64,000 nucleotides of DNA from a virus. Every line of letters begins with the position of its first letter. Within the stretch, counting starts at the first letter, position 1. A program made the position numbers and the translations under genes. The DNA lies in IMG/VR virus record IMGVR_UViG_3300048839_000196, positions 9,883-73,882 of that record, one strand, 5' to 3'. The notes under the pieces are model-generated. The model was not told the DNA's origin. It made no database searches and saw only the letters and a program-made list of their open reading frames with translations. Positions 1-64,000 of the stretch are shown piece after piece.

Positions 1-2
1 TA

Positions 3-1085: not shown

Positions 1086-1095
1086 AACATTAATC

Positions 1096-1692: not shown

Positions 1693-2090
1693 GAACACTG
1701 GCCATTATTGCAGTGCTCATGATACACGGACTGACGCTGAGCGCACAGACGCTTGACCCATTCTACCGGTATGCAATCAGTGATACTATCACTGACACGG
1801 AGTCCGACACCATTACACTACCGGCGCTTATGCTTTCGCCATGGTCTTATAACTGGACCATACAGACTACACAACTCTCTGGAACACAGAACGTTGCGTG
1901 TGTCTTACAGGAAAGCGCAAGTGCCACAGGGACAGACTGGATTCAGATTGACTCGAAGACTACGACTGGATCTACTGATTTGGATCGTATGGTTGGCGCC
2001 TTAATCTATGGCCAGCGACAAAGGGTCATACTCACTGGAACCGGCACACAGAGTACTCGATACACCATCTACTTTGTAGCGAAGAAATAA
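1689..2090 (+). CDS. Secreted small beta-sandwich protein, putative virion decoration; paralog of 54496..54954
   Basis: Signal peptide MRTLAIIAVLMIHGLTLSA|Q; SGT-x6-LQ-x-S...W-x2-I pattern; two D-T-I sequons. Confidence 0.6.
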   Translation: MRTLAIIAVLMIHGLTLSAQTLDPFYRYAISDTITDTESDTITLPALMLSPWSYNWTIQTTQLSGTQNVACVLQESASATGTDWIQIDSKTTTGSTDLDRMVGALIYGQRQRVILTGTGTQSTRYTIYFVAKK

Positions 2091-5100: not shown

Positions 5101-8100
5101 AACTTTCTTAATGGCGCTAAGAAGTTTCCAAAGCGGAAGTCAAATGAGTAGGCGAAGTCTCGCTTGTTCTTGACTTGACTATCGCCAAGTAACTTGCCCA
5201 TGCGGCGCCAGAAGCGATTAGCTTCTTCCACTGCCCCGGCCATAGGCGACCCCGGTGCCCGGTAGCCTCGGCCAGAAACAACCTCGAATAATTCTTTGGC
5301 ATCGCTCTCAAACATTCCGAAGTTCCTCGCCGTATTGCGAACGATCTCTAGGTCAGGTATGCGGTCGTAGTTGTCATTAACGTATTTGCGAGCAGCTTTG
5401 TACTCCGGGTATGCGCGAAGAGCTGGGCTGGCTTTTTGCTGGCGGATATCTATACCACTATCGCCATCCTTTATCGCCATGGCCTGCAACTCAAATCCAA
5501 ATTCATTCTGTGCCAGCTCAAAGAAAGCATCATCCCTACTCTGTGCCGGGATCTCATTCCAGATGGCGTTAAAGATCGACTCGACGACTGGTGTCTTCTG
5601 CCCGGTGGCCTGAGCAATGATGGATGCCCGGCTAGACATAGGTGTGACCTTGTAGTCAACACCCGGCTTTGGAGTGTAGCCCGTGGCGACTTTGTGCAAC
5701 AGACTGTCTTTTGCTACACGACCAAGCCCGACCACGGCAGCAGGTATAGACCTACCTTTCGTGTCGATTTTTGGCGAAATTTTCGACACGTTATACCCTT
5801 GTGTAGATTCCGCGTACGCATCTAATGTCGAATTAATTTTTTCTACGCGATTCTCAGCGGCATTGTCGTAAAGAGAAAGGAGCTGTTTCGCCTCAGCGCT
5901 ATCCAAACCTCCGGGCGTGTTAGCAAGAAGAGATACTGCATCTTCAACTCGCACCATTTGCTGACCATCCACGGTCGAAACGAACACATCGTCTATGGCG
6001 CCAACCACTCCGAGTACATCGTACACCGGAACTGCATCTTTATCCAGCGATGCGACAAGCGCTCCGCGCATCACATCCTCCCGGCTCACCTTTCCATCTT
6101 TGACAGTAGAGATTCGCTCTGTAATCCGGGACACCATTTCATAAAGTGGCCGGGCATTGTCAGATAGGGCAGCCTCCACCTTGGCCACATTGCCAACACT
6201 CCCGCCTTTCTCAAAAGCGACGAACGTCTTTCCAACCCTCTCAAGCGAAGATAAATCGTCGGTCTGTACAGATGAAGGGTGCTTGTCAAACATCGCCTCA
6301 TAGCGCTGCTTTGACTCCTGATGGTATGTTTCAGCCCTCTTGTTTGACTTTGCGGTAAAGTCAGATAAGTCAAAGACCGGGGGTTCGGAGCGCAGCTTTT
6401 CGGTCGTGTCGATCTTTTTCTGCTGACGGATATCCACTCCTTCTCCAAAGGTCATATTCGATCCGTCAGCAAGTTTGATCTGATTAGCAAACTCGTCGAA
6501 CACATGGATATGCGCGGTCATATCCTGCATGTCCATACTTGGGAAACGTACACTAGCATTTATGATGATGCCATCGTGGCCTAAATTTCTGAAAGTCTGG
6601 GCGACAATTTGAGAAGAAACTAATCTACCTTCTTCGTCCTCCGCGTATGGCAAGTCTCTACGAATAGCTGCTTCAAGCGCGGCGGTAGATATACTATCTT
6701 CATATATCCGATCCTCAAGAATCTGATCTGCCGTGGTAGTTTCTCTAGGCGCCCACTCGTCAATCGCATCTTGCAGCGCTTGAACTACGGTTAGTTCTTC
6801 GCCGGAAAGATCGAGTGCCCTTTGACGAACATCGAACTCATAATCTTCTAGCGCCTCCTCCGGAGTGATGTCATTCTCGTCAGCCATCTCTTGAGCCGCG
6901 TCTTCCATATAGGCAGACACGTCCGGCATCATGTCGATGTATTGATCATCGGCGATGCGCACCGGATTATTCAGCTTGACAAAAAGATCGAGAACTTTGT
7001 CCTCTCCTCCGTTGTGACGATTGTACGAAATAGCAAGCGCTAAAGACTCAAGGTCATTGCGATCAAATGTTTCGAGCTGAGCGTCCGTCAGGTTGAACAT
7101 ATCAATCACCTCTTCTGGTGATAGCCCGTCCATATCAAAAGACTGCGACAGGTCATCCGCATCGCGCCTGATCTTATACTCAAGGTCTGGGCCGCCCGTG
7201 GTGTAGTTGGCCTGCGCGTCATACTGATCGGATGTGAAATAATTCACCTTTCCAAACTGGCCACCTATCTCACCTTTCTCATTCGCCTTATCAAAAGAGT
7301 AGAAGGAGTTTGTCGTTCCATGGAAGGCTTGGATAACTACCGGCTGCCCGGTCTGAATTTCTAGGACATCCTCGCCATCGACAATAGGTGCATCGCCCAC
7401 CCATTTTCTGAAGTTCTCCTGCCCTTCAGGGCCGAGCCATTCAAAGTCTTCGACGGATAGTTTTTGCTGGCGGATTTCTGGTTGCTGATTAACGGCGCTC
7501 TGGACTTCGCTCAAAAAAATAATTGACTCTGTAGCAATATCGTAAAACTCAGATATTGGCATGACTTTCCGCTCTACATCTGTCAACTTTCTTCTTTGCT
7601 GAGCAGCCCTAGATTCAACTTCGCCAGCGGTTGCACGGTAAGCTGCGAAAGAATCCAAAATGCCTTTTAGTGGCCCTGTCAATTTCGACTTCTCACCATC
7701 TAGCTTAGCTTGCTCTTCCCTTCCTTTTCGGTAGTAATCATCAGCCATGCCGCTATCCTCCCATCTCTTCCTGAAGCTAGCAAGCATATCAGGGATATAA
7801 CTATACTCAACAGTGATAGGAACGAACGTTTCTGAAAATATCCTATACTGCATTATAGTTATCTTTTTATTCGCTAAATCTGGGTCTTGATTCAGCTTGT
7901 CTTCAGCAGCCATGAGTTCTTTCTCGTACTTAATTGCATCAAAAAATGCTCTTAAGTACCTAGACTCTAGGCGCCCAACTCGTTCCAAGATACTTTGGTA
8001 GTAGTTTGAATTAGCGCCAGATTCGAAGCCCTCGATGTATTGTATCGCGTGCTGGACTTCATGCGTAAAAGTTGAGTTTAAGTCATCTATGGACTTGGCT

Positions 8101-11100
8101 AACTTTTCATCGGACATCAATTTATCCCAAGCCTCATCCTTATGTACGAGATAGTAATTCTTGGCCATCGACATCGCATATCCATACACATCTGGATTTA
8201 TGTTTATGGTGCCAAATCCAGTCCGGCTCGGAGGCTTTCTAAATGCCCCTCGCCATGAACTATCATCTTCTTCTTGGAAGGTAACTCGGAACCTATCCTC
8301 AATAACATTTTCAGAGCGCACGATTAATTCGTCATTGTATAGGCGCACTATCTCTGAATCCGTACCAAGCGCAGCTCTCAGTCCGATAGAATTACCTCTG
8401 TCTAATCCTCGCGCAATCCTCGGCAGCGATTCCTTGCTTATTAAATCTTGATATGGCACTTCATATCTCCACTTCCCATCAACTCCCTTCTCCCATCCAG
8501 TTTGATTCCATATAGCTCGTCTTGATTTCTCGTACTCATCGCCAGATTTTTCGGCCAACTTCTTGGCGAACTCCAAGTTCTCTAGTATATCCGCCCTTAA
8601 GTCGGCGCGTTCGCCAACTATTTGCTTATACACCTTAAGCTTATCTTCTTTAGCTGCGTCAATACCTTCTTTCTCGACAGCCCCTACATTGGCCTCCGTA
8701 CTTGCAAACACCCCTCTCCTACCTTCAGCCGCCCGCCCAAACATCTGCATGGCCTGCTGCACGGCTTGACGGTCACCATACTGAAGACCTTTCTGCATGG
8801 TATTGAAAAGTGCTACCGCATCTCCAGATGTGGTAAGCCGGATCACCAACTTATTCTCTCCAATGATTGCAGCGATAAAGTCATTGATCGCCTTCTCTAT
8901 ACGGCCAAGCGCGGTCTTATCTTTAACCTCGGCTAGTCCTTGAGAAACAACGGCGCCAAGTTCGGCAAGGTATTCTTCGCTCTGTACGTCTTGTCGATCC
9001 TTGTATTGAGCAACAAAGAGATCTAGGTATTCGCCAACAGTTATCGTCCTGCCGTCCTTGAGTTTCACTGGCGTGCGCTGATTGACGTGCGGCTTTATCT
9101 TCTGCACAAGCGCATCTACCTCTTCTGGGCGCTGCGTGGCTGCGTGTTCTATGATAACGTGGAAGCCTTCATGTAATGCAGAGTCAGATGTTGCAGCGCC
9201 CCTATTTAGCATGATGATCTTCGACTTCCCTTTGCCGCCACTAGCGTACACAGCCCGGCTTCCGAGTACATTATCGGCACCCTCTTTGCCAAGCGTCTGC
9301 TCCAGCTTCGGCCTTGAAGACTCATCTACCACGAGCACCGGCACGCCAAGTCCTTTAAGCGCATCGGCTACGCGGTATGCAGACGAAAGAACCGGGTCAT
9401 TGTTTAGCTCGCCCATGTCCATGGCCTGCACATTCTGTACGGTGCGCCCATCAGTAAGTCCGAAGTCGCCCTTGTCTTTGGCCTGCATCCGGCCTATGAG
9501 GTCCGTCTCTGCGTCGCGGCGCTCCTGCTCAAGCCTAGCCCTTGTTTCTGGCGTGATACCCTGATCAGCCAATACCTCATCCAAGTACTCCACCCGCATC
9601 ACGCTCTCGCGTATGTCGTTAGCTGCTGCTTTCTCTTCTGTTAGGAATGCGACAACCTCCTCGCCACGGGTCACAGCTTGACGGTATTCAGGGCTTTCTT
9701 GTCCGAATTGCGCCTCTACTTTATCAAGGTGTGCATCGTATGCAACCTTCACCCCTTCGGCGTCGTCTGTTTCAGACACCGGGATCTGGGTTGCAATCAT
9801 CTTCGCTTCGTCGGAGTACTGCCTGCCGGTAGGCTGAGCTACCTCCTGCTGCTCTTGAATAGCATCGGCCTGCGCGTTCCTTCCTTGAGTAATACGACCG
9901 GCCTCTTCGCGCATGATATCTGCCCTAGCTTGATAGTCCTCTTGAGTTGGCGTAGTTCCTGCCATCATCTGGTCTGCGGCAGCACGACCTACTACCGGAG
10001 CTGCACCAATCGCTGCGCCAGTTGAAGTGACACCTCCACCGGCTATACCGCCAATGACCGCTGCATCGAGCACGCCTTCGAATATATTCCTGCCTTTGTC
10101 TATCGTAGCCTTGTCCACAATATTCTCCGCCAACTGAGCAAGCGCTTCACTGCCAGCTTCTTCAAGCGTGTTCCCTGCAATTCTGCCTAGCGTGTTTACA
10201 ATGGCAGCCTTTACACCTTTGACGGCGAAATCCCTGCCGTAGCGGGTGGCCATCTTCAGCGCCTCCTTGCCAATCTTACCACTCACTGCTTCCGTTATCC
10301 CCTCGAATGCTCCAGTGAGCACAGAGTTCAAGGCTTCCTTCGCTCCAATGTCATACCCTTCTTCGACGAGCTGTTCGTACTTCCCCTTACCGGCAGACAG
10401 ACCAACAGCAGTTGTCCCAACCCCGGGCACCATGGCCATCATCATATATGGCATAGATCCGATGGCTTCGATACTTGCCTTCCTGAATCCCTCGCTGATC
10501 CTACCTTGAGAAACTAGACTAGTGAATGTTTCATCTGCGTTCTCTAGCTTCGCACGAACTACTTTCGTGTTTGCGCGCTGACGATCCGCCCACTTATCAA
10601 GACCTCCAAATTCATCAGAGATGTATTCTGCTGCTTTGAGCATAGCGGGGCCGGGTGTCCAGTCCAACCCTCGCTCAACATTCCTTCTAATTGTTTCTTT
10701 TTTCTCGTCATGTTGCGCTTGAGTTATCTCCCCGCGCTTCAACCTCCTGTCTTCTTTCATCATCGCCACATCCGTCATTAAGGCGTAGTACACATCACGG
10801 ATGTATTCTGGCGCTTCAAGTGCATTAGCTACTGCTTCTTTCCCAACAGCTCCAATCATTGCTGAGCCTTGCTCTAGCACAGACTTTTCACTCAGCGGCC
10901 TAGCTCTTTCCTCCGCTTTCATTTTTTCCACAACGGGCGACGACTCCTCTACCCGGACGCCCGGATATGGAGACACCTGTCTGCGTGCGTTACGCGCCTG
11001 CCTTACCTCTTCGATTGCCTGATCGGCGCCTTTTATACCGAACTCAGAGAGCGTGGGGTTGCTCTTGACGCCTGCTGACGGGGTGGAGGGTGTGCCCGGT

Positions 11101-11468
11101 AGCCCAGCTATGTTTGTGGTCGCCACTGGAGCTACACCCTCCTCTATAAATTGCTTCTCTCTTCCAACTGCTACCGGCGCAGGAACCTCCTGCCCCGCAA
11201 AAGTCCTAGTGCCCAGACCTGAGCCAGCGGTTTCCACTGAGCCAGTCCCAGATTCTTGCACTGATGGATTTTTTTTTTCAACGGTCGTCAGGTGACCACG
11301 AACGAAAACATCTTCCGGATCAGCCGTGAGCTTATTCTCTAGCATAAATCCATGGAGTTTCCTCAATCCGTCTTCTGTGGACACATTATCCCTGAATGAC
11401 TTCTCGTCGATCTCGCCAAGTTTGCCGGTACCCTTGAGGTAGGCGTATAAATTTTTAATTGGGTCCAT
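2151..11468 (-). CDS. Giant polyvalent virion/ejection protein (two zincin HExxH modules, LPD23-like, ART-PolyVal-like, C-terminal LPD38-like)
   Basis: 3105 aa. Motifs: HEGFH; TGWEKGVDGKWRYE; HEVQHAIQYIEGF; FHGT...YFT...GHDGIII...QIK; IPRPYG...PFAEVIVNRDWMGRQI. It is the last gene of the tail operon. Confidence 0.75.
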   Translation of the reverse strand: MDPIKNLYAYLKGTGKLGEIDEKSFRDNVSTEDGLRKLHGFMLENKLTADPEDVFVRGHLTTVEKKNPSVQESGTGSVETAGSGLGTRTFAGQEVPAPVAVGREKQFIEEGVAPVATTNIAGLPGTPSTPSAGVKSNPTLSEFGIKGADQAIEEVRQARNARRQVSPYPGVRVEESSPVVEKMKAEERARPLSEKSVLEQGSAMIGAVGKEAVANALEAPEYIRDVYYALMTDVAMMKEDRRLKRGEITQAQHDEKKETIRRNVERGLDWTPGPAMLKAAEYISDEFGGLDKWADRQRANTKVVRAKLENADETFTSLVSQGRISEGFRKASIEAIGSMPYMMMAMVPGVGTTAVGLSAGKGKYEQLVEEGYDIGAKEALNSVLTGAFEGITEAVSGKIGKEALKMATRYGRDFAVKGVKAAIVNTLGRIAGNTLEEAGSEALAQLAENIVDKATIDKGRNIFEGVLDAAVIGGIAGGGVTSTGAAIGAAPVVGRAAADQMMAGTTPTQEDYQARADIMREEAGRITQGRNAQADAIQEQQEVAQPTGRQYSDEAKMIATQIPVSETDDAEGVKVAYDAHLDKVEAQFGQESPEYRQAVTRGEEVVAFLTEEKAAANDIRESVMRVEYLDEVLADQGITPETRARLEQERRDAETDLIGRMQAKDKGDFGLTDGRTVQNVQAMDMGELNNDPVLSSAYRVADALKGLGVPVLVVDESSRPKLEQTLGKEGADNVLGSRAVYASGGKGKSKIIMLNRGAATSDSALHEGFHVIIEHAATQRPEEVDALVQKIKPHVNQRTPVKLKDGRTITVGEYLDLFVAQYKDRQDVQSEEYLAELGAVVSQGLAEVKDKTALGRIEKAINDFIAAIIGENKLVIRLTTSGDAVALFNTMQKGLQYGDRQAVQQAMQMFGRAAEGRRGVFASTEANVGAVEKEGIDAAKEDKLKVYKQIVGERADLRADILENLEFAKKLAEKSGDEYEKSRRAIWNQTGWEKGVDGKWRYEVPYQDLISKESLPRIARGLDRGNSIGLRAALGTDSEIVRLYNDELIVRSENVIEDRFRVTFQEEDDSSWRGAFRKPPSRTGFGTININPDVYGYAMSMAKNYYLVHKDEAWDKLMSDEKLAKSIDDLNSTFTHEVQHAIQYIEGFESGANSNYYQSILERVGRLESRYLRAFFDAIKYEKELMAAEDKLNQDPDLANKKITIMQYRIFSETFVPITVEYSYIPDMLASFRKRWEDSGMADDYYRKGREEQAKLDGEKSKLTGPLKGILDSFAAYRATAGEVESRAAQQRRKLTDVERKVMPISEFYDIATESIIFLSEVQSAVNQQPEIRQQKLSVEDFEWLGPEGQENFRKWVGDAPIVDGEDVLEIQTGQPVVIQAFHGTTNSFYSFDKANEKGEIGGQFGKVNYFTSDQYDAQANYTTGGPDLEYKIRRDADDLSQSFDMDGLSPEEVIDMFNLTDAQLETFDRNDLESLALAISYNRHNGGEDKVLDLFVKLNNPVRIADDQYIDMMPDVSAYMEDAAQEMADENDITPEEALEDYEFDVRQRALDLSGEELTVVQALQDAIDEWAPRETTTADQILEDRIYEDSISTAALEAAIRRDLPYAEDEEGRLVSSQIVAQTFRNLGHDGIIINASVRFPSMDMQDMTAHIHVFDEFANQIKLADGSNMTFGEGVDIRQQKKIDTTEKLRSEPPVFDLSDFTAKSNKRAETYHQESKQRYEAMFDKHPSSVQTDDLSSLERVGKTFVAFEKGGSVGNVAKVEAALSDNARPLYEMVSRITERISTVKDGKVSREDVMRGALVASLDKDAVPVYDVLGVVGAIDDVFVSTVDGQQMVRVEDAVSLLANTPGGLDSAEAKQLLSLYDNAAENRVEKINSTLDAYAESTQGYNVSKISPKIDTKGRSIPAAVVGLGRVAKDSLLHKVATGYTPKPGVDYKVTPMSSRASIIAQATGQKTPVVESIFNAIWNEIPAQSRDDAFFELAQNEFGFELQAMAIKDGDSGIDIRQQKASPALRAYPEYKAARKYVNDNYDRIPDLEIVRNTARNFGMFESDAKELFEVVSGRGYRAPGSPMAGAVEEANRFWRRMGKLLGDSQVKNKRDFAYSFDFRFGNFLAPLRKFQRDIEKQIGVLLPGTLNAYDAMQLYSSASIYELQAHTLWFWGDNGSKSSKDKSFVGRVTKQLGGVNKFNEFLLALHLPERLLRKLDLLEKYQKDIFSDIERLMASAQQGISSLQTTGIGTAQFWQVANQQASVDPNLARLIAKFNDLQQRIAEMNDAYIKALDRQAEFLSRISGQSFPVIQPGQPLPTNPELNKYMQFYEEFRDKMLTPYLDALMAAGRIDQKRYDHLVKGTSDESTIQWKYYVPMMYSEDAVNHELGITNGERIVNLNGIEGLSKPYDQKTRHKLLNMQAEDVVRPLELAFARLASATRQKHRQDALRRFAELARQHGATDRIRVFSARNVPKMDKYGNIVGAQSLLPKEILENSVPFYEGGKVKYIYFSNPGDQMLAMLRSPDVEGEMSTFMKWYSAILGVMRIGITSLSPTFILNNFLRDIQESSINIRVENDLLQINNTKLKKAWRKRWREAAAQQITPFIASKRVHSDMDRYYAEYLQIGASMGWNFDSSGIFTDIAGKVNERIRDAERVAASGLPRDLATSKNAMIEMMMGLSARFENVSRLAAYASMRDLGVDPIRAAAIAKNITLNFEKKGQFFRGSAGRFISGLYLFLNAGLQSGRKLVKQLSNPAGRRMLALYGMGSTAFRVMLHALYATGDDDEEPKEKGEITMQHGLDRYMNSAFMRQFYLAIPNPFDVDDPVLIPRPYGALRVVGLVADGVVDASLGKRSLLSVTSDVKSAFFTSLDPIGFVSGEITNAVPTLMRPFAEVIVNRDWMGRQILFSREDTRMYAQANKRTLQFYKDLTPSLYAATGLSISPTHMEHIIESYTRTLYPLKFAYGWGKSWDDFNKSADKDKEDKTFTEWMWDQGRINLIAYKPNLSQNERQDMYNFMSMTDVGAKAPLVPPTWTDQEIEYLTRAAKVIRREKLLREQDINSQMVNVALEMQRSGQLDRKASDGKTYRQKIMAIVSSGGRDGFRKKLREAEKGD

Positions 11469-13893: not shown

Positions 13894-16800
13894 TTAACTT
13901 TGCAACATGGCGTGTCCTCTCGATACGTCATATTGAACAACAACGGTATTCATAGCAAAGTTCTGATCGAACTGTATTGCCAGTGGAAGATAAAGTCCCC
14001 TGACTTGTTCGCCAAAGATCAGAGCTTCTTCGTATGTCGTGTGCCCCGGGGACAATCTGTCCCTAAGAAAGGATGCGTAGAACATACTCTCCATGTGCGC
14101 GTATTCATCGGCCACTAGGTCGGTGCCCTGAATGAATGGCTGATCGCTCTTCAGGTGTGTCCACTCTGGCGCAACAGAAGAGGCTATACCTATACTTTGC
14201 GGTAGCTTCACCTCTATATCTCCGCTTCCAATCGGGAAGGATATGATCGACTTGAATGCCTGACCGTAGTAACTCATGCTACTACTGTCATGAATATAAA
14301 GGTCGGCGCCATTAAATGACAGAACGTACCTACTCACACAGGCCATCCAAGAGGGAATAAAATCCTGCGCTGTTGACCAGCCATTTACCTCCGGGTGATA
14401 GCGCCACACCTGACCGGCAGCAGGCTCATGCGGGTCGATCACCGTGGTGTCGTAGCCAAGTAGGCTATTAACCCCGATCTCATTTGGGATAAACACACAG
14501 TACTCGCTAGTCCTGCCGTCCACCGTGGCGTATAGCCTGTTCGATGAGTCTAGTTCGTACAAATTCTCCGTAAAGAACCGGGCCATGCCGTTCTCGCTGA
14601 TTGGTGTGAGTCCGTTTTGCGAGTACTGTACAACAAGGCCATTGATGCGATCTACGAAATATACCCTGCCTTCATCGACCGCTACGCTTTCCGGGTTCAC
14701 TGTGCCGTAGCTTCCGCGTAGGTTATTAATGGTACCTATGACAGCGCCAGACGTAGCAAGAATGGCTGCTCCTGCATTGTCAACCAGTCTTGTTTCGCCA
14801 AGGTAGATTGAGCTTGTCTCTGTTTCACAGATGGCGAGCATAATTGATCCATACTCTTGTGTCCGGATGGTTAGCTTGAGTGACCTGAGTGGACCAGCGT
14901 TGCTATCTAGGTCCACATAATCCAGCGCATCAAAGCTACTCAGCCCATTTACCTGTGTGTCAGCGAGGCGAACGTTCGAGTAGCAGATACTCCCGGGGCG
15001 AACCGATCTTGACCCATCAAGTATAACAATATTGGGGCGTCCTATGTCTGTGATCCACTGCTTCCAGTGCTGATCCGATGGGTTCATGGTTTCGACAAGA
15101 CCATCTCCGGTAAGTTCGTATGTTCGTTCCTTGATGGTTATGTCGCCAGATAGAACTACAGACGTAGCAGATAGAGATCTTGTTGGCGATCCGGGGTTCG
15201 TTACCGGGTGTACAGAGGCGACCTCATAGAATGTTTCCTCAAGGAATCCCCGCTTAGGTGTGATGATCTCGAACAAATGATTCTTGCCCGCCGAGGTCAA
15301 TGACCCTATATCCTTGCCCTGAATAACAACATACGAACCGACCGTATCAATAATCTCTGCGGTGTATTTCTCGCCTGACTCAAAGTACAGCTTGAGCACA
15401 TCGCCTTCAAGGAAAGAGTAACCCATGCCGAATGAAACAGCAGGAGATATGTTTATGGCAACGCCCTGTACTTTACTGGTGTCGAACGTGTCGGTCAGTA
15501 CAGCCCCGGGCGTGTCGGCGAACTGCCAATTCCCATCCTTGTCTTTGCCAACATACTGAATGTCAGTGCCAAACCCTTGCAGGAATGACTGATGCGTTAG
15601 TGACTTGGTGCGAACGACCTGATAATGTGTTGCCCACTCTGGGATCTGATTTGAAGTGAAGCTCAGTGTCACCGCTATATTCGGCGCTGCTGTTGGGCGC
15701 TGATAATCCCGATCTGGGATCAGGACCACTGCATCTTCTGGCGAATAAACCCCTGAGTTGCGACCAGCGAAGTCGTAGAAGACTACACCCACGCGATACC
15801 GGGCACCTGATTTGAATGCTGCGCCAGAGTCGAATACAGATGGCGTGCCGTCGATACCGTAGACGAGTGCATCCCCGTCTGGAGTACCGCCTGCGTATGT
15901 GCGGTTCACCAAGAATACTTCGACGGTTTGAAACTCCGGTGATATAGTGAGCTGATTCCTCAAGTAAAGCTCAAGTAGTGTGTCATCATCCCCTTCAGCT
16001 AGAGTTAGCACGCGCTTCAGTGGATCGAGTACAATGTTTGCCGGTAGGCTATTGGTAAAAAACCCGTTGTAAGAGATACTGTCTAGTCGGTAATATCCGT
16101 TGATCGAATCATCAAGACTATCTACCCTAATGAATAGCATATTGCTGGTTAGTTCACCAGCGCCAAAGACTGCGTTAGGGTCGCCCGGGTTGAACAGGTT
16201 TACGATGAGTGACGCATATACATACGTTCCCCAGATCGAAGACTCACCTACCTCCCCTGCTTCCGCTTGAGCCGTGATCGTGCCCTGCGTAACCGCCTCG
16301 TAACCGAATACGTTGTTTCCAAGGAAAAGGCGATTTTTCGCTGCTGCCAGAGCGCGAGAAGAGATTGGTACGTTGTCAAATAGTTTTGCTGAATACTCCT
16401 CCGATATTGCAATCCCATTCGTGTCGTTGTAAAAATTGTAGGAAAGCGATTGAACTCCTTGATTGTGTAGGTCTATGGCCTGACTATCTCGATCCTTGCG
16501 CCACTCCTTAATGGTGAAAAACGAACCGGTATTGCCAAGCCTGACATGCAAGCGTATCTTATCTACCTCGTAGTCAATGTTTTGCCTAGAGTCCATGGTC
16601 ACAACGATCGTGTCGAACTCTTCGTCTTCGCTGTTTTGAAGTGCGGCTCTTGAGTATGGAGAGATCACAGAGAACTCATAATCCCTGTACACAAATGAAA
16701 ACGCGAACTGAAAGGCATCGTCGTCTATGAGATTGAGCTCCCGATTGTTGTCCTGCTTTGAAACAAGTGGCGCATAACGTGGGTATGGCCGAATAAGTTC

Positions 16801-17310
16801 TACATCTTCTGCTGTTGGGCTGACATATATAACCGGCACTGATCCGTTTGGCGAAACGTAGGTTGCATTGTATGTACGAAGCCCGCGCTCTACATTTATT
16901 TTCTTTGGAGGCTTGTCATCTTGAACCCAATAGAGGATATCTCCAACCTTATCAACCCCGGTGATCGGTGTGTCGCCAAGCCCAAGGTATGCGCCGGTCG
17001 CAACAATTCGGATGGCCTCGGTGCGCTCATCGAACATCATAATGCGGTGTTCGGTAGATGCGTTGTACAGGAAATAGTACAGGCGACCCAGTTCTTTTTC
17101 TTCATAGGCGCCAACAACCACTGATCCGGCAAGCTGTATGCGCTCTGTGATCTTCCTATTCCCCGGCGTCGGCTTGACGCTGGTTATACTCCCGTCCTGA
17201 GCGATGACATAGCTGACGTTCTCCGCATTAAGCAGATCGGTTTCCGGGAACACGGAAAGGTCGGCATCACTATTAACCCTGCCGCTGAATATTTTCCTTT
17301 GTGTCTTCAT
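13894..17310 (-). CDS. Tail muzzle / stabilization protein (P22 gp10-like, crAss-like)
   Basis: 1138 aa beta-rich; N-terminal GRVNSD...NAEN, NRLFLGN, GVVFYDFAGR, YGTVNPES...YFVD...GLTPISENGM motifs typical of this family. Confidence 0.75.
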   Translation of the reverse strand: MKTQRKIFSGRVNSDADLSVFPETDLLNAENVSYVIAQDGSITSVKPTPGNRKITERIQLAGSVVVGAYEEKELGRLYYFLYNASTEHRIMMFDERTEAIRIVATGAYLGLGDTPITGVDKVGDILYWVQDDKPPKKINVERGLRTYNATYVSPNGSVPVIYVSPTAEDVELIRPYPRYAPLVSKQDNNRELNLIDDDAFQFAFSFVYRDYEFSVISPYSRAALQNSEDEEFDTIVVTMDSRQNIDYEVDKIRLHVRLGNTGSFFTIKEWRKDRDSQAIDLHNQGVQSLSYNFYNDTNGIAISEEYSAKLFDNVPISSRALAAAKNRLFLGNNVFGYEAVTQGTITAQAEAGEVGESSIWGTYVYASLIVNLFNPGDPNAVFGAGELTSNMLFIRVDSLDDSINGYYRLDSISYNGFFTNSLPANIVLDPLKRVLTLAEGDDDTLLELYLRNQLTISPEFQTVEVFLVNRTYAGGTPDGDALVYGIDGTPSVFDSGAAFKSGARYRVGVVFYDFAGRNSGVYSPEDAVVLIPDRDYQRPTAAPNIAVTLSFTSNQIPEWATHYQVVRTKSLTHQSFLQGFGTDIQYVGKDKDGNWQFADTPGAVLTDTFDTSKVQGVAINISPAVSFGMGYSFLEGDVLKLYFESGEKYTAEIIDTVGSYVVIQGKDIGSLTSAGKNHLFEIITPKRGFLEETFYEVASVHPVTNPGSPTRSLSATSVVLSGDITIKERTYELTGDGLVETMNPSDQHWKQWITDIGRPNIVILDGSRSVRPGSICYSNVRLADTQVNGLSSFDALDYVDLDSNAGPLRSLKLTIRTQEYGSIMLAICETETSSIYLGETRLVDNAGAAILATSGAVIGTINNLRGSYGTVNPESVAVDEGRVYFVDRINGLVVQYSQNGLTPISENGMARFFTENLYELDSSNRLYATVDGRTSEYCVFIPNEIGVNSLLGYDTTVIDPHEPAAGQVWRYHPEVNGWSTAQDFIPSWMACVSRYVLSFNGADLYIHDSSSMSYYGQAFKSIISFPIGSGDIEVKLPQSIGIASSVAPEWTHLKSDQPFIQGTDLVADEYAHMESMFYASFLRDRLSPGHTTYEEALIFGEQVRGLYLPLAIQFDQNFAMNTVVVQYDVSRGHAMLQS

Positions 17311-55884: not shown

Positions 55885-55900
55885 TGTTTTGCCGATCTCA

Positions 55901-55938
55901 GCAAGTCCCTTGGCGCGATGCACGCGCTGAGGGCTTGT
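55901..55938 (+). terminator. Hairpin / terminator
   Basis: GCAAGTCCCTTGGCGCG...CGCGCTGAGGGCTTGT. Confidence 0.55.
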
Positions 55939-56014
55939 TATTTACGGTAGAAAACTACGGCTAATTATTAGGGTAAGCAGTAGTTTTCTACATTTGTACC
56001 ATAAACCAATTCAA

Positions 56015-57676
56015 ATGAAGAAGTTACTGACATTTACCGCACTACTGTCTTTGGTTGCAATTTCGTGCAACGCTCAGTGGGTGCGACCAAATACATTCAC
56101 AGAGGACACGGCGCCTACGAATGCAACATTCGAGGTGTACTCACAGAAGAACGGCCTGCCGCGCAGAGCGTCACTGGACAACCTGAAGAAGTTCTTCGAT
56201 CAGCGCATCTACACTTCTGGAGATTCGCTCTGCATCACAAGGACGGTAGGAGATACCTGCATATACCTACCGGCAGGGACCAGCGCCGGGGCAGATTATG
56301 ACGTCTGGGCGCTACGCTCTTCTGGCGCAAGCTACCTGCTTTCCGCTGATACTGTTGACAAGTACAACTATATGTACATTCAATACGAGGCAATCACAAC
56401 TCCTAGCGGGAGTACGATTACGTTACCGAATGTAACGGCTTCGATGATTGGGAAAGTTGTGGAGGTGAGCGTATTTTATACTGGCGCATCCGGCCTTTCC
56501 AGTGCATCCATTGCGGGCCCACTGACTATTGTGAATGGCACGAGTGTTACATATCCATCAAGCTATACTGCAACAACAGGAACTTATAAGTTTGTCGCAA
56601 CGCTCGCCATTGATCAGGTGGCCACATACCGCTGGCAGTTACTATCTACTGGCGGGTCGGGTTCCTCTTCATCCAAAAGGGTTAATGTGTCTCAAGCCAC
56701 AAGCACTACCATCACATTAACGTCTGGAGATTTCACGAGCACTGATATCTGGCATTTTTACGCCAACGCATCAAGCGGTAACTCTGGCGTCGTTCTCCCA
56801 AATCCAAGCGCCGATCTGGTTGGGAAGACGGTGTTTTTCTACCCGTTCGCGACAGCTCCGAATACCAACTCAATTAATGCTTCTTCGTTATTCCTGATCA
56901 AGTTTACTGGCCCAAATACTTTCACCAGCGCATCTTCAGTGACTATATCAAGACCGATCGCCATTGTCTGTATTCCAGCTCCAATCGGATTCTCTGGCTA
57001 CTATTGGGCATGGGACTACCTAGACCCGCTTGACGAAATACAGACTCTTACCTTTACAAACGACACGCTTTCAATCTCTGGCGGGAACTCGGTGTATATT
57101 CCATCCGGCGACTCTGTGCTGCTTGGCAATATCCAAGACATCTCTACAAACCGCCTACTTGGAAGATATACCGCTGGCACGGGTCCGGTTGAACAGCTTA
57201 CAATAGGCTCTGATTTCTCTACCGCTGGAGGCACGCTTGCACTGGCAAGCGCATCAGCTACCGGGTACAGCTTCCATATCGCCACTTTAGCAGGAGGTGG
57301 CCGCGTCATAGTGACATACTTCGGAGCAGCGCCAAGTGTATCTGGATCTACCGGCAACTACACGATCACATTCCCAGCGTCCTGTCGCCCGATCTCATTT
57401 ACGGTGAACGGCGGAGCAGGTGACCTCACTGGAGGCGGCGCCTTGAACATAACTTGTACATGGACAAGCCTTCCATCTTCGCTCAATACGAGCGAACTGC
57501 TTATGGTTATACCTGCGATAACTATTACTGAGACGACTACCGCAAGTAATATCCAACTCAGCAATCAGGGCACAGGCTATCAGATCACGCATCCGACGAT
57601 CTCTGCTGGCTCTACAACAACAACGATCACCGGCGTTTCCGGCATCGGTTCATATTCTATAAAAGGTGTATTCTAA
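56015..57676 (+). CDS. Secreted fibre/appendage protein A
   Basis: Start MKKLLTFTALLSLVAISCNA|Q; S/T/G-rich; TLP...GK modules; fibre motif QDISTNRLLGR.TAGTGPVEQLT. Confidence 0.75.
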   Translation: MKKLLTFTALLSLVAISCNAQWVRPNTFTEDTAPTNATFEVYSQKNGLPRRASLDNLKKFFDQRIYTSGDSLCITRTVGDTCIYLPAGTSAGADYDVWALRSSGASYLLSADTVDKYNYMYIQYEAITTPSGSTITLPNVTASMIGKVVEVSVFYTGASGLSSASIAGPLTIVNGTSVTYPSSYTATTGTYKFVATLAIDQVATYRWQLLSTGGSGSSSSKRVNVSQATSTTITLTSGDFTSTDIWHFYANASSGNSGVVLPNPSADLVGKTVFFYPFATAPNTNSINASSLFLIKFTGPNTFTSASSVTISRPIAIVCIPAPIGFSGYYWAWDYLDPLDEIQTLTFTNDTLSISGGNSVYIPSGDSVLLGNIQDISTNRLLGRYTAGTGPVEQLTIGSDFSTAGGTLALASASATGYSFHIATLAGGGRVIVTYFGAAPSVSGSTGNYTITFPASCRPISFTVNGGAGDLTGGGALNITCTWTSLPSSLNTSELLMVIPAITITETTTASNIQLSNQGTGYQITHPTISAGSTTTTITGVSGIGSYSIKGVF

Positions 57677-59091
57677 TGAGAAAATTACTTGTCATACTGA
57701 TCACAGTACTTTCGCTAGAGGGGTACGCTCAGGACACACTGATTCGCAAGTTCAATGCAACAGTGACGTTCTCTGGCTTTGCTATTACTCCGACGTCGAG
57801 ATACGCTGGTACGCTTCTAGTCAATGATCAGACGAATACCTATACGGCATCCAGTGTGACAGTAGGCGATTATGTATTCACGTCGGCAGGTGGAACTTAT
57901 GTGGTTGATACCGTCGGCGCCGCATCATTATTCTCTATACCTGTTACGATCCGGCAGATCAGCGGGCAGACTGCGGTGCCTTCCGGAGTTGGGGATGTAA
58001 CAAAGCCAAGTACAAATTACGGACTCTTTACATTCACACCAGATAATCAGAACGGCGTATCTTCTCAAATGCAGTTTATAAAGCTCAGCGGACTAGTTCA
58101 TCGAATCGACTCTATCTTTCAGTCTGGCGGCAACGGACTCATCTCAGCGCTCCCTCTGGGTAGTGTAACAATAGACGCCAATGGTAACACACTTCGACTT
58201 GACACTATTAATACGTTCACTGCCATGTACTCAGCGACAGCGGGGATCACTAAGGGTAGGACAAGCTATTCGACCATGGCGTCAACTCCAAGGAACGACA
58301 TCAATAACGGGCTTGTGTTGAACAACGCAGGCGGAGCTTATCTGCATTTTACAAACGGAACGACTGCTGGAAATGTGCAGGCGTTCACCGACAGATCCGG
58401 TCTGCGTGCATGGGGCGCAACTCAGCTTGTCGCAGATATTGAGGTTAATGCTACAAATACAGTTCATGTAAGGTCTTATAATCCATCATCTGGAGTAATA
58501 GAAAGCAGCGTTACATTAAATGGGAAGACAATGACCATTGATGCCGACTCCATTATAAAGATGTACGACATATACAATCTGCCAAATGCGACCCCACCTT
58601 CAGATGGAACGCCATACGTTATGTCATGGACGAATAACACTCCGTCATTTTCTTCTGCCGTGGCCGCAAGTACATATGATGCGGGCAACGGCGCCTTTGT
58701 TACAGCTACCGGTGGCGGGGTGACATTCTCAAGGACAGACGGTGTAACTGGCACCTTCACTATTCCGGCTGGAGTAGAACTTCTTAGTGGATCAATACAT
58801 CACTCTTCTGCTCAAAACCCGGGCAGCGTGTACTATATTCGGTTCGACTTCCAAGGAAGCAGGGCGACGAACACGGGTATAAATACACTTTCTCCACCGA
58901 TCGTAAGAGTGATCAACAAGTATCTAGCTGCTCCAAGTAGGACGAACCCAGCCACGTTTGACTCTACGAGCGGAACGATAAACCTTACTGCTCGGGTTAC
59001 TGGTGTGTCGCCACTTGAAATGAAGCTAGAGAACTATAACAACTCCGTTGTTGGTGGATCGCAAGAAACGATGATTAAATTCGTGTTCTGA
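57676..59091 (+). CDS. Secreted fibre/appendage protein B
   Basis: MRKLLVILITVLSLEGYA|Q; beta-rich. Confidence 0.75.
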   Translation: MRKLLVILITVLSLEGYAQDTLIRKFNATVTFSGFAITPTSRYAGTLLVNDQTNTYTASSVTVGDYVFTSAGGTYVVDTVGAASLFSIPVTIRQISGQTAVPSGVGDVTKPSTNYGLFTFTPDNQNGVSSQMQFIKLSGLVHRIDSIFQSGGNGLISALPLGSVTIDANGNTLRLDTINTFTAMYSATAGITKGRTSYSTMASTPRNDINNGLVLNNAGGAYLHFTNGTTAGNVQAFTDRSGLRAWGATQLVADIEVNATNTVHVRSYNPSSGVIESSVTLNGKTMTIDADSIIKMYDIYNLPNATPPSDGTPYVMSWTNNTPSFSSAVAASTYDAGNGAFVTATGGGVTFSRTDGVTGTFTIPAGVELLSGSIHHSSAQNPGSVYYIRFDFQGSRATNTGINTLSPPIVRVINKYLAAPSRTNPATFDSTSGTINLTARVTGVSPLEMKLENYNNSVVGGSQETMIKFVF

Positions 59092-59897
59092 TGAAGAAAA
59101 TAATTATCCCATTTCTATTGCTACCAGTCTTCCTGTTCGCTCAGGCGGACTTCAATGGTTTTGGGGATGTTACACAATCAACTTATGTCAATGATAGTAC
59201 CTTTACTGTTCGGATTATATTCACTGGAGCTTACTATGACGGAGGACAGCACATTGTAGATAGCGTAAAAACCGGGGACTACTTCTACACTGACTGCTCA
59301 GCTTACAGGATATCTACAATCACGATAAAGACTAGCGGCGTATTTGAGGGTAATATCGTAAAGCGTGGGACTGGAGGCCAGCCGGGCGTTGGATTCAGGG
59401 CAACATTATTCCGTAGGACACCATCAAGGTTACTGCTTCGAGGTACGATATATGGAAATGATAATTACGGGATAGCGGCAAATGAGTACAATTGCATACT
59501 CCAGAGCTTGATCACACAGCTAGATACGATTGGCACTGTAAGCGGAGGTGGGGTGGTTGACTCTACTCGAATCATTCAGGATTCGATTGCAGTTTACTAT
59601 CAAGCTGGTATTGAGATAGGTAGAGATACTATTCGTCCGTCAGGTACTATCGGAGGTGGCGATGATTGGGGCGCACAGGTGGTTGTTACAGACGCGATGA
59701 CCTTATCAGGTAATGGGACACCGGGTGATCCATTAAAAGTAGAGGTTGGTACTATGCGAACAAAATTATCTGTTGGTACTTATGCAAACGACACATCAGC
59801 AGGGGCCGGTGGAGTTCTTACCGGCGAGTGGTATATTCTTTCAGCAACAAATACACTTGGGCTTCCACCCGGTACATTAAGACAAAAAATCTATTAG
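59091..59897 (+). CDS. Secreted fibre/appendage protein C
   Basis: MKKIIIPFLLLPVFLFA|Q; fibre motifs TLSGNGTPGDPLKV and YANDTSAGAGGV. Confidence 0.75.
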   Translation: MKKIIIPFLLLPVFLFAQADFNGFGDVTQSTYVNDSTFTVRIIFTGAYYDGGQHIVDSVKTGDYFYTDCSAYRISTITIKTSGVFEGNIVKRGTGGQPGVGFRATLFRRTPSRLLLRGTIYGNDNYGIAANEYNCILQSLITQLDTIGTVSGGGVVDSTRIIQDSIAVYYQAGIEIGRDTIRPSGTIGGGDDWGAQVVVTDAMTLSGNGTPGDPLKVEVGTMRTKLSVGTYANDTSAGAGGVLTGEWYILSATNTLGLPPGTLRQKIY

Positions 59898-59899
59898 CA

Positions 59900-60790
59900 G
59901 TGAGAATCTTGTTGGCATTTATCTTGCTTGCCGCATTTTCTGCGGCGTTCGCCCAAACATCAATTATCGGTGGGTCTGGGGTAACTATTGTAAATGGAAA
60001 CCCAAACTCAAACGCCGATCTAGCTGATCAGGACTTGAGGTATGAGGCTGGTATAGCGCTAGATACCACGAACAACTTGCTGTACATCTACCGACATGAC
60101 GCAGCGCCCGGGTCGAAATGGGTGGACTACTCAGCAGTGGTATCTTCTGATACAGATACTCGACTGAATAATTTCACCTACTCTGGCGGGAAGATCAGGT
60201 GGGATGTGTATAATGTAAAAACGTCATCTGTTATTTCCAGCGACTCTCTTGATATTTCAGCAGTGAATACAGACGCACAGAACCTAACATTCACTGGTGC
60301 GTCTTCTCCATTTACGCTAGACATATCTGGAGGTACGGATGTAACAATAGCATCTGGTACAGGTATAACTTTATCGATGAGCACCAATGAGCTGACGGTA
60401 ACCAACTCAGCTCCAGACCAAACGGTTTCTATATCCGGGACAGGCATTACAGTTGGCGGCACATACCCATCATTTACTCTTACTGCGACTGACCAATCAG
60501 TGACGAATGAAGCACAGACTATATCTTCATCTGCTGTCTCTGCTAGTGCATCTAACCTCACGCTTAATCAAGTCGGAGGCGCAGGAGGAGGCACGGTTGC
60601 GGTGAGCGGAGCAGGAGGTGTGGTACTGACTGGCGGAGCGAATACATTGACTTTCGGCACATCTGCTGTTACGGCTAAAAACTTTGCGGATGCAAACACG
60701 CAGGGCGTAGTTGTTGGTGGGTATTTCTACGCATCTCAGGATAATACAATGGGCTTGACGCCCGGGAGTTATGTTCGCCGAATGTTTTAA
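59900..60790 (+). CDS. Secreted fibre/appendage protein D
   Basis: GTG start 59900 gives MRILLAFILLAAFSAAFA|Q; SGTGIT fibre repeats and NSAPDQTVSISG. Confidence 0.75.
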   Translation: MRILLAFILLAAFSAAFAQTSIIGGSGVTIVNGNPNSNADLADQDLRYEAGIALDTTNNLLYIYRHDAAPGSKWVDYSAVVSSDTDTRLNNFTYSGGKIRWDVYNVKTSSVISSDSLDISAVNTDAQNLTFTGASSPFTLDISGGTDVTIASGTGITLSMSTNELTVTNSAPDQTVSISGTGITVGGTYPSFTLTATDQSVTNEAQTISSSAVSASASNLTLNQVGGAGGGTVAVSGAGGVVLTGGANTLTFGTSAVTAKNFADANTQGVVVGGYFYASQDNTMGLTPGSYVRRMF

Positions 60791-60801
60791 AAAGGAGTAC
60801 T

Positions 60802-63800
60802 ATGTATAAACTTATTCTGACTTTATTTATTTCATTAGCTTCAGTATCGCTTGTTGGGCAGGCGGTAGTCGGTGGGTCTGGAGTTTGCGTGGTAAGTGGA
60901 AACCCAAACAGCATGAGTGCTATTGAGGATCAGGACTTCCGCGTGAACTGCTTGATTGCTTACGACACATCCACGAAGATCCTTTATTGGTATGACAAGA
61001 CATTCTCTATTGGGAATCGTTGGCGCCAAGTAAATCCATCAGAAAGATACAGTAAGTATTTTGAGTCAACAGGTGCAGACTTGCCGTCAGACAGCACTAA
61101 CCTGTACAAGTTGTCCGCGTCATTTGTAAGTGTTTACTTGCGTTTGCAATCCGGAGCGTCGTCCAACTTGCTAATGAATTTTGACAATCCATTGTCATCT
61201 GATTTAGGGAAAGTATTCATAATTACAGCAGACGACGAAGACGGCACTTGGGCTGTACAATTATCTGGGTTGATTAGAGTTTCTGGATCGACAGTTACCA
61301 CATACACAATGGTTCATGGCGAGACGGTCATTTTAACCGCACAGGAAACAGATGATGGCAATAGATGGGTAATGTCTTCAGTGAGTCAATCTAAAGTTGC
61401 GTCAATGATTGTGGATAGCCTATCTGGGTATTCAACACTAGTGGATTCGACGCGCATCATATCCGACAGCGTAGCCGTGTATTATCAAAACGGCTCCGAG
61501 GTTGGCAGGGACACTATCAGAGTGCCAAGCTCAGGCGGCGGATCAGGCACAGTGACAAGTGTAGCGACAGGCGTAGGTCTTACAGGCGGCCCGATCACGA
61601 CAACGGGAGTAATTAGCGTAGATCATGGCACTCAGTTCTATAATTATACTTTCACGCAGGCGGCGGCAAGCATGAGCGACACTGGCAGGGACGGGAGCGC
61701 GCTTGTACAGATGGGGGATTATCTTTTCTTGCTTGGCGGATGGAACCCGGCATATACGCCACAGACCTTTTCTTCTCAATTTCGTGCCCACAAAAACAGC
61801 CCCCAAACATGGGTAAAACTCAAAGACGCGCCTTGGTATCGTCGGCATACAGTAGGGCACGGAGTTATCGGAGATACTGCTTTTATATGGGGGCAAGATT
61901 ATTACAGCTCTTCTAATGCAAATGATATATGGAAAGGTTATTTGAATGGGGATACTATAGTTTGGGCGCTGGTTGACACATTGCCATACCCTAGAAGCCG
62001 CATTCTTTTTGGCGGGACTGTACATAATGGGTGTTTGTTTACCGTCGGCGGGCAGGTAACACTGAACGACACTACAAGCACGCGCAATGATGTATGGAGA
62101 AGCTGCGACAACGGAAAAACATGGTCGCAGGTTGCAAGTGGATTAAGCTGGGCGAATAAAAACCTTTGGGGCGCGGTAGCTTCGTATAATGGGTATTTAT
62201 GGGCAGTTTCCGGCGGGTATTATTTGACGCCAAAAAGTTACACAAATACAATATATCGCAGCATAGACGGTGTTACATGGGAACAAATGCCTAATTATCC
62301 TTTTCTAGGCGTGGATTATCCGCAGACTGTTGTGCATGATGGAAAATTATGGGTATTACATGGCGGCGCAAGTTCCAATAATCTAGGCATTGACACAATC
62401 GCTTATATGGACAGCGGAGGGAACTGGCGACAAGTTCTTAATTCAATGCCCGGCAGACATGCCGCCGCCGCTATTTCAGTAGATGTTGGCACGGATTCAA
62501 GTAAGCTAGTAGTGATGACTGGCACACTTGGCAGCGGTCCTCTTTCAAGTGATGTGTGGATTGTAGAAAGATCAGGCTATGACTACATTACTGCTGGGCA
62601 AGACGCTATTTTGCGAAAACTAGAAGTGAGAGATTCATTATTTTCAACACTAATTGTGCCAAAATCAGGGACATCTGTTAATGTAATCAATAATGCGCTA
62701 TACGTATCAAGTAACAAAATAGGAATCAATCAAACTCCGGCAAATTTACCCGGAGCAATGAATTTCAACGCAGTGAACATGTATGTAGGCGCTAATATTG
62801 GATCCGCTGGCGGCGGGAATCTTTATGAGGGAACCGGACGAACCGCAAACACTGAAAAGTCTTTCATAATGACTATGCCGTCATATAGTGGGACATCTGA
62901 CAGAATAGGGCTGATATCCGCGTATAATTACGGCGCAACAAATAACCGTTTTTATATTGGGTCAGCTGGCGCTATTAGCCTCGCAGGTCCTGATTACATT
63001 ACAATAGGGCCAAAAGTAGCAACCGGATCGCGTCCCACAGCATGGACATCGGGGCAAACAACAAATACCCGAGGTACGTTTGGTGTTGGCGCTTGGAATG
63101 ATGGCATTCCAAGTTATGGCGTCGGCGCTTTTGAAAACACGGACTATCAGACACACACTTCAGGCCATCGTGCTGCATATACAGGCGGTGGTGGATTTGT
63201 GGCGTCATCAGGAAATGGGACATGGGCGTTAATAGACCTTAGGGATAATATCGTCCAAACAGGAACCGCGACCGGCGCAACTTGGGGGCTAAGAATACGC
63301 CCTTCTATTACCGCAGCGCCTAATTGGACTGCTATATCAATAGAAAGCAATCAAGGGATTGGAGTGTATCAATCCGGCGCAAGCGCAACAAATAACTTCG
63401 CAGGCTCTACCCGCATAGGCTCCACGTCGGCCCCGGCCCGTCGCTTACATGTTTCCGGCGTGGTGCGCTTAGATTCGCTTGCATCATTCACCCCGACGCG
63501 CGTTGTCGGCGCTAACACGGATGGGGATTTAGGCGCGTGGACTATGAGCGTGTTAGCGGATAGCATCGACAACTATATTACCACGTCCGGGGTAACGGAC
63601 GGCGACAAAGGCGACATAGACGTGACAAGCTCCGGGGCCGTGTGGACAATAGACACGGCGGCGGTTAATACGCTGAAAATCGCAGACGGCGCGGTAACCT
63701 CCGACAAGCTCGCAAGCGGGGCCGCAGGTGGGGCGAAATTGGGCGGGTTGACTTACTTAAGCGTAGATGACGCAGATGTGGACTTAAGCAATTATCTGAC

Positions 63801-64000
63801 AATCGACTGGATAAGCAACTATTCACAGCTTGTTGTCTGGCTGCGCATCGGAAACACAGCGAGCCGGACGGTAACTTTCCCGGAGCCGTCAAGTACATAC
63901 GCAGGGAAAATAGTTGAAGTGTTTTTCGGAACAACAAACGGCGGTACGCACTTCGGGCAGATCACAAGCGGCGGCACAAACCGCCTGACGTACCGGGATG
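60802..64000 (+). CDS. Secreted fibre/receptor-binding protein E with Kelch-like beta-propeller (>1066 aa, 3'-truncated, not in ORF track)
   Basis: Manual translation is open to the window end: MYKLILTLFISLASVSLVG|Q; GTVTSVATGVGLTGGPITTTG; Kelch/Asp-box repeats (LFLLGG, LFTVGG, VWRSCDNGKTW, YRSIDGVTW); DGDKGDIDV; KIADGAVTSDKLA. Confidence 0.85.
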   Translation, partial: MYKLILTLFISLASVSLVGQAVVGGSGVCVVSGNPNSMSAIEDQDFRVNCLIAYDTSTKILYWYDKTFSIGNRWRQVNPSERYSKYFESTGADLPSDSTNLYKLSASFVSVYLRLQSGASSNLLMNFDNPLSSDLGKVFIITADDEDGTWAVQLSGLIRVSGSTVTTYTMVHGETVILTAQETDDGNRWVMSSVSQSKVASMIVDSLSGYSTLVDSTRIISDSVAVYYQNGSEVGRDTIRVPSSGGGSGTVTSVATGVGLTGGPITTTGVISVDHGTQFYNYTFTQAAASMSDTGRDGSALVQMGDYLFLLGGWNPAYTPQTFSSQFRAHKNSPQTWVKLKDAPWYRRHTVGHGVIGDTAFIWGQDYYSSSNANDIWKGYLNGDTIVWALVDTLPYPRSRILFGGTVHNGCLFTVGGQVTLNDTTSTRNDVWRSCDNGKTWSQVASGLSWANKNLWGAVASYNGYLWAVSGGYYLTPKSYTNTIYRSIDGVTWEQMPNYPFLGVDYPQTVVHDGKLWVLHGGASSNNLGIDTIAYMDSGGNWRQVLNSMPGRHAAAAISVDVGTDSSKLVVMTGTLGSGPLSSDVWIVERSGYDYITAGQDAILRKLEVRDSLFSTLIVPKSGTSVNVINNALYVSSNKIGINQTPANLPGAMNFNAVNMYVGANIGSAGGGNLYEGTGRTANTEKSFIMTMPSYSGTSDRIGLISAYNYGATNNRFYIGSAGAISLAGPDYITIGPKVATGSRPTAWTSGQTTNTRGTFGVGAWNDGIPSYGVGAFENTDYQTHTSGHRAAYTGGGGFVASSGNGTWALIDLRDNIVQTGTATGATWGLRIRPSITAAPNWTAISIESNQGIGVYQSGASATNNFAGSTRIGSTSAPARRLHVSGVVRLDSLASFTPTRVVGANTDGDLGAWTMSVLADSIDNYITTSGVTDGDKGDIDVTSSGAVWTIDTAAVNTLKIADGAVTSDKLASGAAGGAKLGGLTYLSVDDADVDLSNYLTIDWISNYSQLVVWLRIGNTASRTVTFPEPSSTYAGKIVEVFFGTTNGGTHFGQITSGGTNRLTYRD

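Follow-up and report, generated by a model that had tools for sequence, protein, structure and literature searches.

What do the shared ends of neighbouring phage fibre proteins do? The question is raised by five consecutive plus-strand genes, which we call A to E, in a 64,000-nucleotide stretch of viral DNA (hereafter the window; bases 9883-73882 of the 73,882-base IMG/VR virus contig IMGVR_UViG_3300048839_000196). Their products share terminal domains in daisy-chain fashion, A with B, B with C, C with D and D with E, and the original prediction for this locus held that these homologous ends pair with each other, tail-to-tail and head-to-head in gene order, to build a jointed or branched filament that ends in E. 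The alternating shared ends are real and assembly in gene order is still plausible, but the pairing of like with like is unsupported and clashes with the comparative data. We propose instead that A-E form a translationally coupled operon of mosaic fibre proteins in which the N-terminal plug of a protein would fit into a C-terminal socket on its predecessor, a reading of the sequences to which we give an even chance of being correct. That the five are mosaic fibres of the receptor-binding or adhesin type, built of exchangeable modules, is the best explanation of their make-up.

All sequence strings on which the earlier claim was built are found in the translations of A-E, and pairwise and profile matches together establish all four end links as homologies. 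In Smith-Waterman local alignments, with scores judged against 500 shuffles, the common N-terminus of D and E (N1; 59963-60124 in D and 60865-61023 in E, located by alignment and by hidden Markov model, HMM) is the clearest (z=21.6, p~5e-13, 43% identity over 58 columns), followed by the common C-terminus of C and D (C1; z=7.4, p~4e-5), which an HMM places at 59781-59876 in C (E=3.6e-13) and at 60677-60766 in D, and by the common N-domain of B and C (N2; 57751-58116 in B; z=6.8, p~9e-5). An N2 HMM assembled from homologues of the B N-domain in a library of 1.8 billion proteins, with C left out, matches residues 31-146 of C (E=3.8e-7). The common C-terminus of A and B (C2; 57341-57673 in A, 58663-59082 in B) is undetectable pairwise (z=0.5, p=0.27) and is a profile-only link: the HMM of the B C-domain matches residues 443-543 of A (E=9.8e-7), the next best of the 78 genome proteins has an E-value above 0.05, and the C-termini of the A orthologues in the related loci L082, L084 and L085 match at ~1e-11. 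The 'LP.P....GK.V' module noticed in A and E also proved to be a real domain of about 105 residues (R), found at residues 98-213 and 228-331 of A, 993-1066 of E (where it is cut by the contig end) and 771-878 of F, a sixth fibre gene of 885 codons at the opposite end of the contig (genome 3388-6045). Two additional shared pieces came to light, a module of 35-39 residues (M1; C 155-193, E 213-247, F 251-289; 69-82% identical) and a long distal segment, in which E 817-1066 is 75% identical to F 591-844.

The genes are packed closely. Gene A (56015-57676, an open reading frame, ORF, of 553 residues) encodes a leader (1-20, ending CNA before a Gln), a further N-terminal module (N3, 21-70), the two R domains and C2 (443-553). 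Gene B (57676-59091, 471 residues), whose start overlaps the A stop by 1 nucleotide (TAATG), encodes a leader (1-18, YA before Gln), the N2 β-barrel (26-147), a helix (130-151), a middle region modelled with low confidence and the C2 β-sandwich (330-469). Gene C (59091-59897, 268 residues) overlaps the B stop in the same manner (TGATG) and carries a leader (1-17, FA before Gln), N2 (31-146), M1 and C1 (231-262). The 1-nucleotide overlaps at A/B and B/C suggest coupled translation. Gene D (59900-60790, 296 residues) starts with GTG 2 nucleotides past the C stop and consists of a leader (1-18, FA before Gln), N1 (22-75), fibre repeats (~120-250) and C1 (260-289). Gene E (60802-64000), cut by the contig end, encodes at least 1066 residues: a leader (1-19, VG before Gln), N1 (22-74), a domain common to the N2 fibres of relatives (86-193), M1, six Kelch-like blades (~290-600) and then fibre repeats and the R domain from 993. 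The blades are readable in the translation as six 'hhhhGG ... W' repeats, and the Pfam scores stay below the cut-offs (Kelch_6, 16.9 bits against 25.3; Kelch_1, 15.4 against 20.1).

The resulting order, A(..C2), B(N2..C2), C(N2..C1), D(N1..C1), E(N1..), fits two descriptions, in which either like ends face each other or a C2 precedes every N2 and a C1 every N1. Only the second holds in other phages, which are uncultured and of the Bacteroidota. Among the 2373 ORFs called in 75 loci fetched with the D family, most of which were caught via the central fibre repeat of D and not via C1 or N1, a C1-ended gene lies directly upstream of 20 of the 26 distinct N1-headed genes; conversely, an N1-headed gene lies directly downstream of 20 of the 26 distinct C1-ended genes and one gene away from 5 more, and only locus L055 shows no N1. 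The background frequency is low, with C1 on 32 of the 2373 ORFs. The C1 carriers are mutually unrelated and include 100-residue proteins, proteins with four tandem C1 copies, an 819-residue virion protein and tail completion/terminator proteins, whose bodies match PF11367 (L040:8202-8792 with 36.2 bits and L061:2263-3075 with 41.5 bits, against a cut-off of 24.5; E=7.5e-9 and 1.7e-10) and phrog_347 (E=1e-11 to 8e-15, including L056:2892-3443). For the other module pair, the unrelated loci furnished just two C2-ended genes (L059:4115-5290 and L062:6031-7449), and at most 8 nucleotides behind each comes a leader-bearing gene headed by N2 (E=6.5e-9 and 3.1e-11). A C-like gene (N2 and a weak C1), a D-like gene (N1 and C1) and an E-like gene (N1) also succeed one another in a distant lineage (L034/L035/L007). 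This adjacency of C1 then N1 and of C2 then N2 points to unlike ends meeting head-to-tail, and we therefore propose two cognate unlike pairs.

In the first pair, the C2 β-sandwich of A and B would receive the N2 β-barrel of the next-encoded B and C, and in the second the C1 of C and D, of about 32 residues, would receive the N1 of the next-encoded D and E, of about 55 residues, giving a head-to-tail chain A>B>C>D>E. Since there are two candidate plugs per socket type, branching is possible. D, with a plug, a fibre stretch and a socket, could act as an extender or adaptor, as could the D-like proteins elsewhere, and the four-copy C1 proteins may be branching adaptors. The filament would not have to end in E, which the contig end cuts short and whose distal part recurs in F. 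Homologies, modular distribution and gene adjacency are demonstrated; from these we infer physical binding, its stoichiometry and the place of assembly. In another locus, the protein L038:7897-9033 combines a leader, N1 and four tandem C1 copies and is followed by a gene for an N1-headed fibre of 1848 residues; it looks like a branching adaptor.

The modules themselves behave as portable ends. An exhaustive search with B returned 187 relatives, which split into N2 carriers and C2 carriers. N2 is invariably N-terminal, behind a leader and a Gln (57 representatives of 141-1548 residues in a library clustered at 50%), and C2 invariably lies at most 15 residues from the C-terminus (106 representatives of 154-1039 residues), many C2-ended proteins being ordinary fibre bodies without a leader. 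Besides D and E, 37 distinct sequences have N1 behind a leader, and F has a weak match to it; the two N1 copies of a single phage resemble each other slightly more (43%, 40% and 39% identity) than do orthologues from different phages (30-37%). C1 lies 5-9 residues from the C-terminus and has the consensus Y.nD.aAi.gGL..G.yY.l...N..G.P.G. The predicted structure of B has a small β-barrel at 26-125 (predicted local distance difference test, pLDDT, 94-98), a long helix at 130-151 and a β-sandwich at 330-471 (pLDDT ~95), which in fold searches drew only generic small β-barrel and β-sandwich matches (Foldseek E≥6e-3; VIA Z≤6.5). The model of D is poor overall and best in C1 (pLDDT 85-91 over the last 40 residues); all its fold matches have Z≤3.7, and the top ones for N1 are N-terminal regions of podophage tailspikes, which we take as a hint only. 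The N3 module of A recurs in L059:4115-5290, a 391-residue protein of another phage made up of the A N-domain, a collagen-like GPA repeat and the B C2 domain, which hints that the fibres are trimeric.

Searches of Pfam, PHROGs and NCBIfam gave no match for A-D, and in Pfam at E≤0.1 only the weak Kelch matches of E appeared. We also considered whether the shared C-ends are sorting domains of the type IX secretion system, either of the Por_Secre_tail/TIGR04183 type or the type B C-terminal domain TIGR04131, and rejected this, as A-E have neither an NCBIfam match (E≤1) nor a match to a sorting-domain Pfam family (E≤0.1). A protein atlas search with the four-copy C1 protein returned scores that were all below 0.9, and C has three close relatives only. 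A third module pair, between the protein preceding A and the N3 of A, was looked for and no similarity was found. Scanning metagenomes with N2 yielded two loci only, both close kin of the source phage, a scan of 401 Bacteroidota genomes one weak match (E=2.8e-4), and a scan of the five genomes bearing D-repeat loci none. Nothing was found in scans for related loci with the capsid protein, D alone, the C2 alignment or two N2 subfamilies.

All five proteins begin with a Sec-type n-h-c leader followed by Gln at +1. Substrates of the Bacteroidota signal peptidase I are marked by such a leader (PMC5837995), and A-E, in which a small residue at -1 precedes the Gln, conform to this Q-rule as judged from their sequences. 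The Gln, at position 19, is invariant or at least 90% conserved in three family alignments. A-E contain 33 copies of the host O-glycosylation-type sequon D[ST][AILVMT], where shuffled sequences lead one to expect 13.5, and the portal and terminase contain none; M1 (window 59553-59669 in C, 61438-61542 in E) carries three. At least five further late proteins have a Sec-type leader and Gln, namely F, a 243-residue protein, a 426-residue protein, an S8 protease and a 133-residue protein (genome C1:3388-11972, where the prefix denotes genome coordinates and not the module; the last part overlaps window 1-2090). The 426-residue protein (C1:8209-9489) has a 406-residue paralogue (C1:2168-3388; 37% identity over 259 residues), and of the two only the former has the leader. 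A 152-residue protein beside the capsid gene has a hydrophobic N-terminus.

These features would allow a bolder reading, which we hold to be unlikely but worth stating, that the host-recognition gear of Bacteroidota phages is built outside the cytoplasm, where exported and perhaps O-glycosylated fibres would join through N1-into-C1 and N2-into-C2 docking. Its companion claim, on which we are equally sceptical, is that the fibres would be fixed after lysis to C1 sockets on the tail terminator or other particle proteins of cytoplasmic origin.

Three other explanations of the same data have to be set against head-to-tail docking of unlike ends. The pairing of homologous ends, A-C2 with B-C2, B-N2 with C-N2, C-C1 with D-C1 and D-N1 with E-N1, into a chain joined tail-to-tail and head-to-head, fits the alternating pattern of the source genome, and homologous oligomerisation domains are able to form mixed oligomers; yet N1 and C1 occur once per locus in many of the phages sampled (L045, L048, L049, L051, L054, L056, L057, L061, L039, L043, L044, L065 and L067), which leaves no paralogue as partner, so that pairing with a paralogue's copy cannot be their conserved role. 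L034 likewise has a single detected N2 gene, the conserved feature is the neighbourhood of unlike modules, and trimers mixed from different fibres would have to accommodate bodies of unequal length, which together make such pairing highly improbable. The main competitor of docking is plain mosaicism, in which A-E are paralogues whose N-ends are common anchors for one site on the particle and whose C-ends serve them all as distal receptor-binding or folding domains, with no binding among them, and in which the adjacency of C-ends and N-ends is the linkage of neighbouring coding segments transferred jointly in fibre-gene recombination. Paralogous phage fibres with shared N-terminal anchors are common, the modules here are widely shuffled among architectures, C2 resembles a sugar-binding-type β-sandwich at a fibre tip, and consecutive N2 fibres without an intervening C2 are seen in L081 and L082. 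What mosaicism leaves unexplained is why C1 should be grafted onto carriers as unrelated as a tail terminator, a 100-residue protein, an 819-residue protein and four-copy arrays, always beside an N1 gene; nor does it account for the four-copy proteins, in which three of the C1 copies are distant from the junction. We regard it as a real possibility, though less likely than not.

A third alternative takes its cue from the leaders and would have A-E not be particle parts at all, their modules serving in proteins exported to the host periplasm or surface, for instance for envelope remodelling or phage exclusion. The n-h-c leader and conserved Gln of all five and the sequon excess speak for it, and Q-rule proteins of Porphyromonas phages have been read as host-envelope modifiers of unknown function (PMC10367356). 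Against it, A-E have bodies of the usual fibre-repeat kind, PF07880, PF13884 or PF24243 occurs in some relatives, the genes lie in the late operon directly behind those for portal, scaffold and capsid, and C1 also occurs on leaderless tail-terminator proteins; we think it improbable. The docking of unlike ends has difficulties of its own. The paired modules are encoded less than ~100 nucleotides apart, so physical linkage alone could preserve their pairing through recombination, and the C2>N2 pairing is known from three lineages only. C2 may be a simple receptor-binding tip, given that many fibres end in it and that its modelled fold is like those of sugar-binding β-sandwiches (Z ~5). One socket per plug is no strict rule, since L081 and L082 have two successive N2-headed genes of which the first lacks a C2 end. 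Lastly, the N1 and N2 proteins have Sec-type leaders while several C1 carriers, such as the tail terminators, have none, which means that docking, if the leaders work, would have to take place across compartments or after lysis.

The contig as a whole places these genes in a recognisable setting. Matches in PHROGs identify genes for a terminase, a portal and a capsid protein, lysis enzymes are encoded as well, and A-E belong to the late operon, directly after the genes for portal, scaffold and capsid. The 130-nucleotide spacer upstream of A (55885-56014, plus strand) contains a GC-rich hairpin and a TAnnTTTG-like box of the Bacteroidota -7 type, TACATTTG, and is, from its sequence, a possible operon boundary and promoter. 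The only match to cultured phages is that of the portal, which shares ~25% identity with the portals of Cellulophaga and Flavobacterium podophages; the head genes had no DNA-level match, and E, D, B, a four-copy C1 protein and an N1 fibre head had none either. Relatives of the fibre modules sit in Bacteroidota metagenome bins (Saprospiraceae, Chitinophagales, Sphingobacteriales and Flavobacteriales), and because of this the host is very probably a member of the Bacteroidota. The source is best explained as a roughly 74-kilobase, short-tailed phage of Bacteroidota, distantly akin to the Cellulophaga and Flavobacterium podophages. The last 127 bases of the window (63874-64000) are an exact copy of genome C1:5794-5920 within F; E is thus truncated, by ~40 residues, and the assembly probably broke at this repeat, despite the rating of the contig as complete by CheckV. 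Elsewhere in the window, the minus strand encodes a protein of 1138 residues (13894-17310) that matches the crAss muzzle family PF25731 (34 bits) and phrog_14478, and a polyvalent protein of 3105 residues (2151-11468) with LPD38 and LPD23 domains and a weak ADP-ribosyltransferase match.

If the docking pairs are real, they provide a sequence-based rule for fibre architecture in a large group of uncultured Bacteroidota phages, from which the seat of each protein, the identity of the adaptors and the position of branches could be read, and they would supply compact, transferable parts with which new receptor-binding proteins could be fitted to a particle. If assembly outside the cytoplasm holds as well, the sockets and plugs would amount to a portable docking standard for swapping, extending and branching fibres. 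If only genetic linkage is at work, the finding comes down to ordinary tail-fibre mosaicism. Together with the conserved export leaders, it sharpens the question of where and when Bacteroidota phages attach their fibres.

Among known systems, the long tail fibre of phage T4 is a jointed structure whose segments (gp34, gp35, gp36 and gp37), encoded by consecutive genes, are joined end to end in gene order through unlike ends. The joints proposed for A-E would likewise follow gene order and use unlike ends, but here they are read from gene neighbourhood alone; moreover, Pfam, PHROGs and NCBIfam reveal no sequence relation to the T4 proteins, the T4 segments lack the export leaders that A-E carry, and N1, N2, C1 and C2 belong to no described family. 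The branched receptor-binding complexes of podophages and of the CBA120, G7C and Kp7 types are similar in that spike or fibre genes lie side by side and the N-terminal domain of one product docks on a domain of another, and the model of N1 bears a weak likeness to residues 14-82 of Kp7 gp52 (Z 3.0) and 16-84 of AS12 gp42 (Z 3.6). These fold matches are, however, below the level of kinship, and the T4 gp10-like adaptor that defines such complexes, PF07880, was not found in A-E with Pfam and is recorded only on distant relatives of the D repeat region, of ~212 residues. With the Q-rule proteins of Bacteroidota (PMC5837995) and of Porphyromonas phages (PMC10367356), A-E have in common the leader and Gln +1, conserved in the N1, N2 and D families, whereas, unlike the Porphyromonas phage proteins, the carriers here are long fibre-type proteins in a structural operon. 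The mosaic fibres of lambdoid, P2 and T-even phages, finally, share with A-E the recombined modules for N-terminal anchor, shaft and tip and the paralogues with common ends within one genome; what sets the present proteins apart is that their N-end modules always stand behind a Sec-type leader, and that a specific pair of C-end and N-end persists across gene boundaries on unrelated carriers.

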